A stretch of 64,000 nucleotides of DNA, taken from positions 64,001 to 128,000 of the forward strand of contig JAGXNO010000001.1 of the NCBI GenBank assembly GCA_019894975.1. Direction: 5' to 3'. Below, one piece after another: positions 14,021 to 20,502 of this stretch. The stretch's first letter is position 1; each line of letters begins with the position of its first letter. Both the position numbers and the translations under genes were made by a program. The notes beneath the pieces are model-generated. The model was given only the letters and a program-made list of their open reading frames with translations. It was not told the origin of the DNA and made no database searches. Origin of the DNA: Promethearchaeota archaeon (lineage in GTDB: Archaea; Asgardarchaeota; Lokiarchaeia; Sigyniarchaeales; SOKP01).

Positions 14021-14373
14021 TTAATTGTTATAGCTTTCACTAGGTTGGTAATCTGATTGAATTATATCTACACTTTCTAATTCTTGTAAATGATAATAAA
14101 GGCTAGGTTTTTTTAAATTTTTAAAATCCCCCTTACCACACATTCCTTTACATTGATTTTCATCGGAATCTAAATTTTCGTTCATATCTTTAAGAAAATT
14201 AAATATTTCATCAGAAGATTTAGGACCCTCTTTTAAATAATCAAGGATGACCCATCGAATATGACAATGTAATTCTTTTACATATTTTTCTATCTCATTA
14301 AGGGTAAGATTACTTTTCGATATAGCACTTTTACTTGCTTTTGGATTTGGATTTCTCTTTTTAGCTTTTGCAT
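14021..14373 (-). pseudogene. ArsR-like winged-helix regulator, start out of frame and probably 3'-truncated
   Basis: Open frame 14371-14021 reads AKAKKRNPNP...LHCHIRWVILDYLKEGPKSSDEI...PSLYYHLQELESVDII; the nearest ATG (14373) is out of frame. Confidence 0.6.
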
Positions 14374-16048: not shown

Positions 16049-16110
16049 ATATAGTTTTAAAATAAAACGATATTTTTATACAATTTGATTCTTTTTAATA
16101 GGAAGCAATC

Positions 16111-16158
16111 CTATTGTCAATCTCTCACTAACGTTTTTTGAAAGATGTCATCCAACTT
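16111..16158 (-). promoter_or_regulatory. Candidate eukaryote-type SECIS element in the 3' UTR
   Basis: Minus strand: GTTGG-ATGAC-ATCTTTCA-AAAAACGTTAG-TGAGAGAT-TGAC-AAT. AUGA/GA quartet, 8-bp upper stem (one G-U), A-run opening the loop, directly after the TAA of a gene with in-frame TGAs. Confidence 0.72.
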
Positions 16159-16644
16159 TTATCTTTTTAGTTTAAAATAATGAGCAAATGTCTCATTTTC
16201 TTTTCCATAGGTTTCCATGATAAATTTTTTGAAAGCACCATAATCTAATCGCTCTTTCATAATATCAGCTCATCAATCAGCGTGTACAACGATAGTTATA
16301 TTACTATTGGGATAGAGATTAGTATTTATATCATCTTGCAAGTTCATAAATTCTCTATTTGGTCCATATGCATTAACTGCACAGTCCTCATAAATTTTAT
16401 TCTCCTCTCCATCCCAAATTAATTGCAAATAACTGTTTATCAACCCTTTATAGATAGGAAAAATTTTATTTTCTGGATTAGAATAAACTTGCTTATCTAT
16501 AACACTTAATGCGTCTATAATAGTTCCTTTGTCTTTTATAGTTATCGTGTATTCTAATCCTTTTGACAACCTTTTTTCAGGGTCAGGTGCAAAAATTGAA
16601 ACCCGTACAGTCTTTTGTTTTTGTTTTTCTACCATGATAATCAC
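16159..16644 (-). CDS. Candidate selenoprotein: beta-grasp (MoaD/ubiquitin-like) domain with tandem Sec-Sec (TGA TGA at 16275-16270) and a 36-aa C-terminal extension
   Basis: The ORF-track protein ends ...LYPNSNITIVVHAD at TGA TGA, but the frame continues ADIMKERLDYGAFKKFIMETYGKENETFAHYFKLKR-TAA(16161-16159). SECIS-like hairpin follows. Likely start ATG 16635 after GGGGTGA. Confidence 0.72.
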
Positions 16645-16678
16645 CCCAAATGAGCTAAAATAATAGATTTACTAAATT

Positions 16679-16960
16679 CTATATAAGACCTTTAGCTCTA
16701 AGGATTTTTGGTAATTCTTTCTTAAGGATAAACGATGAAGAAAACTTTTTCTCACCATCAACGACAACGCACTTACTACTAATGTTTAGATTTTTCGCTT
16801 CTTCTGAATTAAGATTCTTAGTGTCAAAATCGATATGTTTAATATAAGGAGTAAGTTCAACAAATACTCGATTCATAAACTTATCCCATTCACAAGCGCA
16901 TGCATCTAGAGGAACATAGATATCTATCTTTAATTTCCCATTTGACTTTTCATTACTCAT
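16679..16960 (-). CDS. Small thioredoxin-fold CxC protein, ArsD metallochaperone-like
   Basis: KIDIYVPLDACAC...CVVVDGE resembles the ArsD pattern (IxVFDPAMCC...LVDGE); lies in the acr3 operon. Confidence 0.55.
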   Translation of the reverse strand: MSNEKSNGKLKIDIYVPLDACACEWDKFMNRVFVELTPYIKHIDFDTKNLNSEEAKNLNISSKCVVVDGEKKFSSSFILKKELPKILRAKGLI

Positions 16961-16984
16961 CTCTAACGATTCCTCTATACTTGT

Positions 16985-17203
16985 TTAATTTGTTTTATTA
17001 ATAGGTTGATTCTGCTCGCAGTGAAGTTTAACGCCACAATGTATCCCTTTCTTCAAGCGTTTAGGATTTTCAGGATCACAGGGCTCCTCATGTGAACATT
17101 GTGATTCAGCATTAGCACTACAAGAATGACCTGAATAATCAGGTGATTCTCTCATTTCTTTCATAATTATTTCTATTGTTTTATCTATTTCTTCATCAGA
17201 CAT
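16985..17203 (-). CDS. Small Cys/His-rich protein, putative metal(loid) binder
   Basis: 72 aa with 5 Cys and 4 His; GAGGA upstream; co-oriented directly after acr3. Confidence 0.6.
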   Translation of the reverse strand: MSDEEIDKTIEIIMKEMRESPDYSGHSCSANAESQCSHEEPCDPENPKRLKKGIHCGVKLHCEQNQPINKTN

Positions 17204-17274
17204 TTCTACTTATATCCTCTTTTCTATATATATTAATTAGTTTTCTAAGAAATATATTTTTTGGATATTTTTAT

Positions 17275-18294
17275 TTATTGTGATTTCCAAAAACCTCGTT
17301 TACTAAGCAATCGTCCTAAATATACAACTGAAAGCATGACTGGAACTTCCCAAAATAATCCCATGGTTGTACCTAACGCTGCAATAGTATTATTCATAGC
17401 AATAGCAGTAGCTATAGCAATCTCAAAATGGCTAGAGGAACCGATTATTACTGTAATGATTGCCTCCCTGTATTTCATCTTAAATATTTTTGTCATTAGT
17501 ATATTATAGCCCACAACTATGACAAATCCTACTAGAAGTGGAATTGTAACTATTAATAAGTAATCCGGATGATCTAAGAGGGCCGTACCATTCATAGAAA
17601 AAAGGATTATTAATGTTGCTAGAAGCGCGATAATGGAAATCTTCCCAAGAAATGGGCGATAAGTGTCGGTGAACCATTCTTCTCCTTTAGAAGAAATCAG
17701 AACTTTCTTACTAGTTAACCCCACTATTAATGGAAGACCAATGAAGAAAAATAGCGAAATCAATAACAACACCCAATCAAGGGAAATATTTTGTATTCCT
17801 GTCAAAAATGTAACAATAGGAATATATAAAAAGATGATGGTAATCGTATTTAAGCTGGTATTAACTACATTTTGCTCTTGGTTTCCTTTCGCCATCCAAC
17901 CCCACACTAAAACCATTGCTGTGCAAGGAGAACTAGAAAGTAATATAATTGCAAGGATTAAGTCATCATTCCCTTGTAAAAATATTCGTGCCATAAGCAA
18001 TCCGATGAAGGGGGCCACAATCCAATTTGAAATAAGGGTTAGGATTATTGGTTTAGGATTTTTACCCAATTTTTTCAATTCAGATGCCTTAAGGTTTAAC
18101 ATTGCAGGATACATCATTAGAAACAAACAAATTCCAATTGGTACTGAAATTCCCCCAATCTTTAGAGCGTTAAGAGCGTCACTAATACCAGGTATGATTT
18201 GGGAAATGAGAACACCAATAAGTATACATAATAAGACCCAAAGCGGTAAAAACTTTTCAAAAAAGCTGATTGTTCTTCCTTCTTCTTCACTCAT
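17275..18294 (-). CDS. acr3: Arsenite efflux transporter, Acr3 family
   Basis: FFEKFLPLWV, MMYP, SPCTAMVLVW, SSHFEIAIA, EVPVML motifs. Confidence 0.95.
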   Translation of the reverse strand: MSEEEGRTISFFEKFLPLWVLLCILIGVLISQIIPGISDALNALKIGGISVPIGICLFLMMYPAMLNLKASELKKLGKNPKPIILTLISNWIVAPFIGLLMARIFLQGNDDLILAIILLSSSPCTAMVLVWGWMAKGNQEQNVVNTSLNTITIIFLYIPIVTFLTGIQNISLDWVLLLISLFFFIGLPLIVGLTSKKVLISSKGEEWFTDTYRPFLGKISIIALLATLIILFSMNGTALLDHPDYLLIVTIPLLVGFVIVVGYNILMTKIFKMKYREAIITVIIGSSSHFEIAIATAIAMNNTIAALGTTMGLFWEVPVMLSVVYLGRLLSKRGFWKSQ

Positions 18295-18324
18295 ATTATT
18301 TAAATCCTTCTCTTATACCAATAT

Positions 18325-18340
18325 ATGAAATTTAATTGAT
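18325..18340. promoter_or_regulatory. Putative ArsR operator
   Basis: ATGAA-N6-TTGAT, one mismatch to the ATCAA-N6-TTGAT ArsR/SmtB-type box, in the divergent acr3/arsR intergenic region; the region is AT-rich, so a chance match is possible. Confidence 0.4.
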
Positions 18341-18454
18341 TCTTAAATAAGAAAATTTTTATCCAAATAAAAATTTATTGATTTGAATAAGTTTTTATAA
18401 ATCTGCTTATCTTTAATAATTATTAGACATTGAGAATCTGAAGTGGTGTTATAA

Positions 18455-18841
18455 ATGGATCCTGATCATAAAAAAGAAATTTTGGATAAATTGATTAAAT
18501 GTGAAGATATAAATAATCCAGATCTTCATTTCAAACAATTGCGTGAATTAGGTAATCACTTAATTCAAAATCCTAGTTTTGATGACTTAATTAAATTTGT
18601 AAACGCTGTTGCAAATAGAAAACGCCTAATAATTATTAATACATTAAAAGAGAAGGATCGATGTGTCTGTGAATTAGAAGCTGTTTTAGACGAGTCCCAA
18701 CCGGCCATATCACATCATTTAAAAATACTTGAAAATGCTGGATTGATTAGAGGATGGAAAAAAGGTAAGTTTACACATTATGACATTGTTAAAGAACAAA
18801 TTATCTCATATATGGATATTTTAAATCAAAAATTAATATAA
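18455..18841 (+). CDS. arsR: ArsR family metalloregulator
   Basis: RCVCEL As(III)-binding box, SQPAISHHLKILENAGLI; divergent from acr3. Confidence 0.93.
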   Translation: MDPDHKKEILDKLIKCEDINNPDLHFKQLRELGNHLIQNPSFDDLIKFVNAVANRKRLIIINTLKEKDRCVCELEAVLDESQPAISHHLKILENAGLIRGWKKGKFTHYDIVKEQIISYMDILNQKLI

Positions 18842-18972
18842 ATAAGCCTTCCACTAAAATTAATAGTCTATAACTATTAAGTTTAAAAGCTAATCTAAGT
18901 ATTTTAATCGTAATCTAAAATTTAGATTTACTTGACATAATTTAATTTTAGTGAAGAAAATTTTTTGAAAAC

Positions 18973-19230
18973 GTGAAATTTATGGCAAAACCAGTACCAG
19001 ATACCGAAGAGTCAATGAATGAATGCAGAAAATTCTGTGGTCCTTGTCCTTCTTTCAAACCAAACCAACTCAATGAATTTGAACCTCATGCTCTATTCTG
19101 TTCAAGAGGAATATCACAAAAACCAAAAGACCAAATAGAAAACAAAGGATGCAGTTGTTTTGGATGTGGATTGTTCTCAAAGTATGAATTGGAAAAGGGA
19201 TTTTTCTGTGCACCTCATTTTCAACAATAA
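18973..19230 (+). CDS. DUF2769-like Cys-rich small protein
   Basis: C..FCGPCPSF...LFCSRG...GCSCFGC...FFC pattern. Confidence 0.75.
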   Translation: MKFMAKPVPDTEESMNECRKFCGPCPSFKPNQLNEFEPHALFCSRGISQKPKDQIENKGCSCFGCGLFSKYELEKGFFCAPHFQQ

Positions 19231-19332
19231 AAAATTACTACTTCATATAATCTCTTTTTTTTTAATTTTCCTATGAAATTTTTATTAAATATTACAGTGA
19301 ATATTTTAAATGTACAAGTATATCACAATATA

Positions 19333-19401
19333 ATGAGAATTAATTTTTCGAATAAGGTAAGAGTTCTTACCTCTTGTTGCTGTAGTACTTGTTGTTGTTA
19401 A
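19333..19401 (+). CDS. Poly-cysteine leader peptide MRINFSNKVRVLTSCCCSTCCC (22 aa, not in ORF track)
   Basis: ATG 19333 to TAA 19401; 6 of the last 8 codons are Cys; about 110 nt upstream of cysteine synthase; TTTTAAAT box at 19304-19311. Confidence 0.8.
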   Translation: MRINFSNKVRVLTSCCCSTCCC

Positions 19402-19500: not shown

Positions 19501-20502
19501 TTGGGTGATAGAATGAAGTCATTATCGTATAGTAGGGAAAAAGGAAAAATTGAATTTAATAATAAATTAAGAGTGTATGAAAGTATTGAAGATTTAATTT
19601 CAAATAGAGAAAATCCTTCACCATTGGTTAAACTAAATGAAAGAATTAATCCAAATAAGAATTTTCCGATTTATATGAAATTAGAGCGCTACAATCCTTT
19701 TGGATCAATAAAAGATAGAGTTGCTTATTCAATGCTTAAAGATGTAGTATTTAAGGAGGGGCAACGGATCATAGAACCGTCATCTGGGAATACTGGAATC
19801 GCTTTAGCATCATTAGCAAATGCGAGGGGTATTCCTATTGAAATAGCTGTACCGAGTAGAATTCCCGAAGAAAAAAAGATACTTTTAAAATTACTCGGTG
19901 TGAAAGAATTATGGGAAGCTGATGATAATCTATGTCCTAAGTTTCCTAATGAAGGGGCGAGAGGTGTTGTAAATGGAATATTGGAGAGTAAGGGTGGAGA
20001 ACGGTATTTTAATCCAGATCAATATGGAAATGACTTGAATGTAGAGGCTCATTATAGAACCACAGGTCCAGAAATTTGGGATCAAACTAATGGGGAAATT
20101 GATTATTTTTTTGCAGCTATGGGTACATGTGGCACTATTACAGGAGTTGGAAAATTCTTAAAAGAAAATAAACCCTCGGTTAAAATAATAGGAGTAGAAC
20201 CTTCAGAAACATTACATAATATACCAGGCTTGAAAAGAATAACTGACCTTGATGAAGATTTGATTCCAAAAATCTTAGATAAAACTGTAATTGATGAAAT
20301 TATTGAAGTAAACGATAAAGAAGCTTATAGAACCGGTATTGACTTAGCAAGAAAAAATGGCATATTAGTTGGGCCTTCTACCGGTGCAATTTTAGCCGCT
20401 GCTTTAAAGTATGCAAAATCACATGAAGGGATAGCAGTTATTATTGCCCCCGATGATGCTACTAAATATATTAGTTCATATGCGCCCTATATTAAAGAAT
20501 AG
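19501..20502 (+). CDS. cysK: PLP-dependent cysteine synthase family protein (CysK/CysM-like)
   Basis: NPFGSIKDR (PLP lysine), EPSSGNTG, TTGPEIW, MGTCGT, GPSTGA; probable start ATG 19513 after GGGTGA. Confidence 0.88.
   Translation: MGDRMKSLSYSREKGKIEFNNKLRVYESIEDLISNRENPSPLVKLNERINPNKNFPIYMKLERYNPFGSIKDRVAYSMLKDVVFKEGQRIIEPSSGNTGIALASLANARGIPIEIAVPSRIPEEKKILLKLLGVKELWEADDNLCPKFPNEGARGVVNGILESKGGERYFNPDQYGNDLNVEAHYRTTGPEIWDQTNGEIDYFFAAMGTCGTITGVGKFLKENKPSVKIIGVEPSETLHNIPGLKRITDLDEDLIPKILDKTVIDEIIEVNDKEAYRTGIDLARKNGILVGPSTGAILAAALKYAKSHEGIAVIIAPDDATKYISSYAPYIKE

Follow-up and report, generated by a model that had tools for sequence, protein, structure and literature searches.

Small cysteine proteins and a predicted Sec-Sec selenoprotein accompany the arsenite permease gene acr3 in a Promethearchaeota archaeon

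Behind the arsenite efflux gene acr3 of a Promethearchaeota archaeon (GCA_019894975.1, contig JAGXNO010000001.1) lie three small genes whose products, judged from their linkage and domain fusions, appear to be arsenic-associated thiol/selenol proteins, the last of them a predicted selenoprotein with two adjacent selenocysteine (Sec) residues. The window, that is the whole stretch of DNA analysed, comprises 64,000 nt (forward-strand positions 64,001–128,000) of a 3.9 Mb genome that is 95% complete. Coordinates given below are window positions, L-codes such as L065 are labels for loci of relatives and C-codes such as C125 denote contigs of the same genome. On the minus strand the order is acr3, p72, p93, UU and a selenocysteine insertion sequence (SECIS) of the lokiSECIS type, with arsR divergent and followed by a DUF2769 gene. 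The gene p72 (16985–17203) begins after a 71-nt gap behind acr3 and encodes a small Cys/His protein of 72 aa, p93 (16679–16960) follows after 24 nt and encodes a CxC thioredoxin-fold protein of 93 aa, and UU (16159–16635) follows after a further 43 nt and encodes 158 aa when TGA is read as Sec. An initial annotation of this DNA had described an arsR with a CVC box facing a run of acr3, a 72-aa protein, a 93-aa protein and the UU protein, and all of these genes are present. We read the locus as a presumably ArsR-controlled acr3 operon with three Cys/Sec accessory proteins that would handle metalloids, and we consider the chances about even that these proteins use their Cys and Sec residues to capture As(III) or methyl-As(III) and pass it on, a proposal that draws partly on analogy.

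Read plainly, the UU gene is a 123-codon open reading frame (ORF) ending at TGA TGA (16275–16270), and with TGA as Sec the frame runs through H-A-D-U121-U122 and a further 36 codons to a TAA at 16159. The two adjacent in-frame UGA codons (Sec121 and Sec122, 16270–16275, minus strand) were read directly and are conserved in 94 genes of the family. A paralogue in the same genome (43% identical) retains both, and homologues were found in 50 of 61 relatives, every one of which keeps both TGAs, down to 21–30% identity, together with a tail after Sec-Sec that is conserved at the protein level, including a tail motif. Because the paralogue and all of these homologues keep the TGAs and the tail, the UGA-UGA gene is, on comparative grounds, a genuine selenoprotein gene, and its two TGAs are recoded codons and not a double stop that arose by chance. 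A profile search of the phylum placed the UU family in 138 of 400 genomes (families f1–f7, all of one class), and among the matches listed every UU homologue has at least two TGAs. When 1.84 billion representative proteins were searched with UU only 20 relatives were recovered, mostly ending at the UGAs, and the same search gave no Cys-Cys UU homologues from other phyla.

The initial annotation had a SECIS closing the run, and a lokiSECIS was indeed found (16117–16151, minus strand), 119 nt past the second UGA and just outside the start coordinate of 16159 that had been given for the locus. It consists of AUGA, a 9-bp stem with one C.U mismatch at its base, an 11-nt loop AAAAACGUUAG with As first and AG last, and GA, and so matches all features of the published description (AUGA, 9-bp stem, 11-nt A-rich loop ending in AG, then GA; PMC4989117). 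Covariation was assessed in an alignment of 47 elements, with the 3′ partner slid and with 500 shuffles as controls. All seven counted pairs of the lokiSECIS stem covary and 98% of cells pair; in the 47-element alignment 12 of the 13 pairs counted carry compensatory changes and pairing holds in 94.8% of cells, a figure that falls to about 52% once the 3′ partner is slid; none of the 500 shuffles reaches the observed values. A second hairpin (16097–16115, minus strand; stem AAUAGGA/UCCUAUU, loop UUGCU) lies directly 3′ of the SECIS, shows compensatory changes at five of six pairs and is present in distant homologues too; it might act as a terminator, stand in for helix I or be bound by a protein. 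An Rfam scan of 14–21 kb (E ≤ 10) returned no SECIS family and only chance snoRNA-like matches, and single-sequence folding of the SECIS region gave an energy that was not significant (z −0.9), the element being recognizable by comparison only. Genes for tRNA-Sec (62.6 bits) and SepSecS (482 bits) adjoin each other on contig C44. Gene callers end the protein at the TGAs, as would be expected of a true double stop, but that explanation is strongly disfavoured by the tail that every homologue keeps and by the covarying SECIS; together with its counterpart, synteny without shared function (see below), we hold it to be very improbable.

Several related observations on Sec decoding were made in the relatives. 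In three loci with tandem UU genes downstream of acr3 (L090:5967–6951, L102:6027–6981 and L076:5476–6426) a lokiSECIS follows the second gene only, so that all four UGA codons of the gene pair seem to depend on a single SECIS, an arrangement already reported for hdrA-vhuD. Three distant homologues (L058:6975–7058, L059:2208–2291 and L061:7448–7531) are ended by a third in-frame UGA about 35 codons past Sec-Sec, which is the UGA of the SECIS AUGA core itself and illustrates the minimal-distance rule for Sec decoding. Just downstream of the UU gene in one of these loci an Fe-S protein is encoded (L059:2282–3418) whose read-through end is …C-N-H-UGA-C, and this UGA may be a further Sec codon. A database protein of 131 aa (P0138) is a UU homologue in which G-C-I-T replaces G-C-U-U and represents a rare Sec-less member.

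The AF2 model of UU (mean predicted local distance difference test score, pLDDT, 88.5) consists of a beta-grasp domain and a helical tail. Foldseek matched it to Urm1 (probability 1.0, E 1.7e-3) and further structural matches were the transcobalamin beta domain (Z 7.6), CysO (Z 7.2), SAMP1 (Z 6.9) and MoaD-related proteins (Z about 6; 6.4), values that are modest and indicate the fold class only. Residues 2–90 of CysO align to residues 9–122 of the UU model, and the end of CysO therefore places Sec-Sec at the diglycine position. UU thus shares with MoaD, ThiS, CysO, SAMP and Urm1 the beta-grasp fold and a reactive chalcogen right after the last strand, where these sulfur carriers have their Gly-Gly-(thiocarboxylate), but unlike them it lacks a terminal diglycine, its Sec-Sec being internal, with a conserved helical tail of 36 aa behind it. 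Near UU no E1-like activating enzyme was seen, and the similarity is modest (Z 6–7).

The residues around Sec-Sec follow a pattern. The commonest motif of the UU family is P-D-A-G-C-U-U, while the orthologue group to which the UU of the window belongs has H-A-D-U-U and has gained a cysteine in Y-E-D-C-A-V (Cys85). As 54 of the 94 family genes have C-U-U and in 34 of the 94 x-U-U is accompanied by the ‘EDC’ cysteine, a third chalcogen beside the two selenols seems to be required, and Cys85 is likely to be the third ligand of the UU protein described here.

The p93 model (mean pLDDT 83.7) has a beta-alpha-beta-alpha-beta-beta-alpha topology, that is a thioredoxin fold, and its structural matches are thioredoxins (Z up to 10.2, Foldseek probability about 1). 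Helix 1 begins with an invariant C21-x-C23, which occupies the site of the thioredoxin CxxC. The 214 homologues are all Asgard hypothetical proteins with no Pfam domain, and a profile search of PDB sequences gave nothing meaningful. Longer database proteins with a p93 domain are fusions to the arsenite methyltransferase ArsM in 11 of 14 cases, ArsM being the sole recurrent fusion partner; in L084 and L087, for example, p93 forms the C-terminal domain of a bona fide ArsM scoring 357–361 bits against the model NF008823 (cut-off 263). In other genera p93 carries an N-terminal extension with SCC…SCCG motifs, like the N-terminus of ArsM. Orthologues of p72 with 61–78% identity exist, two genomes (L033 and L039) encode p72 and p93 as one fused protein, and the 284-nt acr3–p93 gap in eight further genomes is filled by p72-like ORFs of 60 aa that tblastn had missed, such ORFs occupying the gap in most genomes of the genus. 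The best reading of p72 on this sequence evidence is as a split-off, diverged form of the p93 N-terminal arm. The possibility that p72 is not a gene was considered and rejected in view of its conserved orthologues, its fusions to p93 and the p72-like ORFs in equivalent gaps elsewhere.

The 93-aa protein had been described as resembling ArsD, and this held for the fold and not for the sequence. ArsD is a metallochaperone that delivers As(III) to the ArsA ATPase. Like ArsD, p93 is small, belongs to an ars operon, combines a thioredoxin fold with close cysteines after the first strand and would, as proposed here, have a role in capture and hand-over. The ArsD family PF06953, however, had no match at E ≤ 1 in p93, nor any elsewhere in the genome, the ArsD site is Cys12-Cys13-Cys18 (CC…C) whereas p93 has only C21-x-C23, and no gene for an ArsA partner is found in the p93 locus. 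ArsD was not among the top structural matches listed for p93, which are thioredoxins and glutaredoxins, although a structural likeness may exist.

The genome has a single acr3 and a single p93, with UU lying 640 nt from acr3. Conservation of the acr3–(p72)–p93–UU run within the genus is weak evidence for a functional link, because the flanking YdjM, HD and 423-aa AAA-like genes, which have no obvious connection with arsenic, are equally syntenic there. Such shared synteny is what one would expect if the genes were merely neighbours, the counterpart of the double stop mentioned above. The linkage, however, persists through rearrangement and across genera, and p93 is fused to ArsM. Among 40 additional loci, drawn from the other genera of this family, acr3 lies within about 6 kb of UU in 21, in two architectures. 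In architecture A arsR diverges from acr3–(arsM)–(CpaM/HgcA-like fusion)–(HgcB-like ferredoxin)–p93–UU, and in architecture B arsR–p93–DGC converges on UU–acr3, beside further arsR genes. Counted by genus, UU is 5 kb or less from acr3 in 10 of 25 sampled and near arsR in 11 of 25, and one of these, L065, is from another family and has arsR 10 nt upstream of UU with acr3 divergent. The initial annotation had suggested gene-neighbourhood conservation as a check; p93 and UU prove to accompany acr3/arsR in many other genomes even where the gene order has changed, and the lack of linkage that would have spoken against the proposal was not seen. As the linkage survives rearrangement, and given the p93–ArsM fusions and the pattern of p72–p93 gaps and fusions, we conclude that p72, p93 and UU are associated with arsenic and that their link exceeds synteny.

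A number of observations weigh against an arsenic-specific role and should be set beside this evidence. The equal synteny of the flanking genes within the genus has been mentioned. Most loci come from one family (f1) and kin are not independent, and about 10 of the 40 additional loci have no ars gene nearby. UU lies directly downstream of CDF cation-efflux genes, on the same strand, in L066, L067 and L068 (g2 and g17), a CDF gene is 2.2 kb from UU in L058 and a CDF-like gene lies beside a paralogue in L049; in L060 and L064 (g14 and g15) UU is directly behind Na_H_Exchanger+CBS genes, and in the rest of the non-f1 loci it is beside unrelated genes. The ancestral role of the UU family may therefore have been broader than arsenic, as these contexts suggest. 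To our knowledge, moreover, no chaperone is known for Acr3, which is a secondary carrier. The selenium recoding–arsenic detoxification connection put forward in the initial annotation accordingly stands in part: ars linkage is clear in family f1, but with CDF and Na/H-exchanger genes among its neighbours UU is not specific to arsenic. These CDF and exchanger contexts would also suit a different explanation, in which UU would be a selenoprotein of the soft-metal or electrophile-stress kind, cooperating with CDF, Na/H-exchanger–CBS and Acr3 proteins or gating them, and arsenic would be only one lineage-specific use. We rate this as quite unlikely, as the partners in family f1 are specifically ars genes (including ArsM, ArsR and p93), a Na/H exchanger has no obvious need of a metal chaperone and the non-ars contexts come from few genera only. 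What the whole distribution looks like is a UU family that is a partner of efflux systems generally and became specialized for ars operons in family f1.

In the mechanism that we propose, entry of As(III) would cause ArsR to leave the divergent promoter, acr3–p72–p93–UU would be transcribed as one unit and the lokiSECIS at its 3′ end would recode UGA-UGA to Sec-Sec. The CxC of p93, together with the split-off Cys/His arm p72, would capture As(III). A flexible loop of UU would present two vicinal selenols and one Cys (Cys85 here, with Cys-Sec-Sec in most relatives), and Cys, Sec and Sec could form a three-ligand soft site for As(III) or methyl-As(III); a triad of this kind fits three-coordinate As(III), and the p93–ArsM fusions point to As(III) as a shared ligand. 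The p93/UU pair would then sequester the metalloid and pass it to Acr3 for export or, in sister genera, to the ArsM and HgcA-like methylation enzymes of the same operon. In ArsD and in the tail of MerA, as is well established, As(III) or Hg(II) is bound by vicinal cysteines and passed on, and arsenite avidly targets the Cys-Sec of thioredoxin reductase. A more specific form of the proposal would make UU a metallochaperone based on selenium, the first of its kind. The Cys/Sec-Sec loop of this ubiquitin-fold protein would exceed thiols by far in its affinity for As(III) or methyl-As(III), and UU would deliver the metalloid directly to Acr3 or to methylating enzymes, with p93 and p72 as a relay; this we put forward tentatively, as a possibility that we doubt more than we believe.

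The position of the p93 CxC, exactly at the thioredoxin CxxC site, also suggests a redox couple, in which the Sec-Sec/Cys loop of UU would cycle between selenol and diselenide or selenenylsulfide and be recycled by p93. Its task might be the reduction of arsenate or methylarsenate, as a substitute for ArsC, or keeping the catalytic cysteines of Acr3 or ArsM reduced. The G-C-U-U of most UU members resembles the redox tail of thioredoxin reductase, which is G-C-U-G. No ArsC is encoded in the locus and an ArsC of the PF03960 type was not found in the genome, and known selenoproteins are mostly redox enzymes (PMC13188914). There are, however, three LMWPc/ArsC-type genes elsewhere in the genome, the habitat of these organisms is anoxic sediment where As(III) is predominant, the CxC and the relocated Cys suit metal ligation at least equally well, and p93 is found fused to ArsM, which binds As(III), a pairing that speaks for the handling of As(III). 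On balance we regard a redox couple as unlikely and prefer the capture-and-transfer reading.

The initial annotation had also stated that arsC, arsA and arsM are missing from the locus, and a family-model scan agreed in finding no ArsC, ArsA or ArsM among the genes of 14.4–22 kb. Its further idea, that the Sec-Sec protein acts in place of ArsC/ArsA, stays conjectural, since the rest of the genome encodes ArsM (C125, 331 bits), the three LMWPc/ArsC-type proteins (C96 and C66) and ArsA/Get3-like ATPases (C104 and C87). With canonical arsR–acr3 operons the locus shares a repressor of the CVC ArsR/SmtB kind divergent from a probable ACR3 permease and, in sister genera, arsM in the same operon, but it differs from canonical ars operons in having no arsC, arsA or arsD and in carrying three lineage-restricted small proteins, one a selenoprotein with a 3′ SECIS.

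Known Lokiarchaeial selenoproteins comprise five families (Mariotti 2016, PMC4989117) or seven (Huang 2024, PMC11227280), and the UU family is absent from both sets; nor was it found in the accessible part of the 2026 selenoprotein review (PMC13188914). UU has in common with the lokiSECIS selenoproteins (HdrA-VhuD, VhuU, PrxL and SPS) the same element in the 3′ untranslated region, more than one Sec per protein and the sharing of a SECIS by tandem genes, whereas its fold and genomic context differ from those of the hydrogenase, Hdr and Prx enzymes. Sec-containing forms of ArsM and ArsC have previously been catalogued in bacteria (PMC13188914). These and the ArsM/AhpD and ArsM/DUF2284 double selenoproteins couple Sec to arsenic metabolism (NCBIfam NF041536 and NF041537); their Sec, however, lies inside a known enzyme, while UU is a separate small archaeal protein of a new family with a eukaryote-like SECIS. 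The selenium–arsenic link itself is thus known already, and the ars operon is of a known kind; the novelty lies in a Sec-Sec beta-grasp protein that stands on its own in ars operons of archaea, together with a CxC thioredoxin-fold domain and its split Cys/His arm.

With UU the Asgard archaea, whose published selenoproteomes consist of redox enzymes throughout, gain a selenoprotein family that is very widespread and had been overlooked, and it has a defined physiological setting, the efflux of metalloids and metals. ACR3-type operons acquire two candidate accessories, an ArsM-fusing thioredoxin-fold CxC domain and a Cys/Sec-Sec beta-grasp protein. If the selenols do act as metal ligands and not as redox centres, this would be an unusual use of Sec and a concrete molecular case of arsenic–selenium antagonism. 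Because gene callers end UU genes at the UGAs, Lokiarchaeial annotations need correction.

ArsR (18455–18841, plus strand) is an ArsR/SmtB metalloregulator (Pfam HTH_5, E 4.7e-16; NF033788, 73.6 bits, cut-off 55) with a CVC box of the metalloid type (C70-V-C72) in a CVCELE motif that is kept in orthologues, and its N-terminal Cys16 is conserved and is an uncertain candidate for the third As(III) ligand. Acr3 (17275–18294, minus strand) matches Pfam SBF (E 2.9e-37) and aligns to TIGR00832 over positions 1–325 of 327 (E 1.4e-77, 261.3 bits), slightly missing the equivalog cut-off of 282.8, which its orthologue in L065 clears (291.7 bits); the conserved P-C-x-A-M-V motif is present, read in the sequence as SSPCTAMV. 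The 160 nt between the starts of arsR and acr3 (18295–18454) presumably hold the promoter and operator. AT-rich inverted repeats in this spacer could not be separated from an AT-rich background or from chance, and a sigma-70/terminator scan of the promoter, which is of a kind not applicable to archaea, gave no enrichment. The Cys-rich gene that the initial annotation had called DUF2769-like lies downstream of arsR (18973–19230, plus strand) and scored above the gathering cut-off of PF10967 (E 1.5e-10, 41.9 bits, cut-off 22.8); such a gene is beside arsR in a minority of related loci only. No Pfam or NCBIfam family matches p72, p93 or UU.

Some features of the related loci deserve mention in their own right. 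Between acr3 and p93 in L088 (3527–5176) a 550-aa protein is encoded that fuses a CpaM-type methyltransferase to an HgcA-like corrinoid domain (NF040863, 166 bits; NF043039, 166 bits; both under the cut-offs), and it is followed by an HgcB-like two-cluster ferredoxin with an N-terminal CC (L088:5214–5525). The fusion also occurs in L044, L047, L086, L092, L094, L096, L098 and L105, that is in sister genera and in some genomes of the same genus, and with its ferredoxin it could be a corrinoid-dependent metalloid methylation module. A second small operon near UU–acr3, consisting of a CVC arsR-like gene, a p93 paralogue and a DGC-domain protein (PF08859), was seen in L055:5725–6563, L057:4207–5329, L090:3638–4745, L099, L109, L072 and L082 and seems to be a further thiol-based module within this island. 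The CDF genes upstream of UU (L066:364–1953, L067:5306–6919 and L068:7653–9107) encode three C-terminal ZT_dimer stretches, an unusually long cytoplasmic tail.

The other neighbours within 14.4–22 kb of the window are the HD, YdjM, cysteine synthase and 423-aa AAA-like genes. At 14158–14220 (minus strand) there are weak matches to C/D-box snoRNAs (SNORD5 and SNORD24, E 3–9, far under the gathering scores), which possibly mark an archaeal C/D sRNA or are due to chance. A short ORF with a string of cysteine codons at its end (19273–19401, plus strand) lies just upstream of the cysteine synthase gene (19501–20502).

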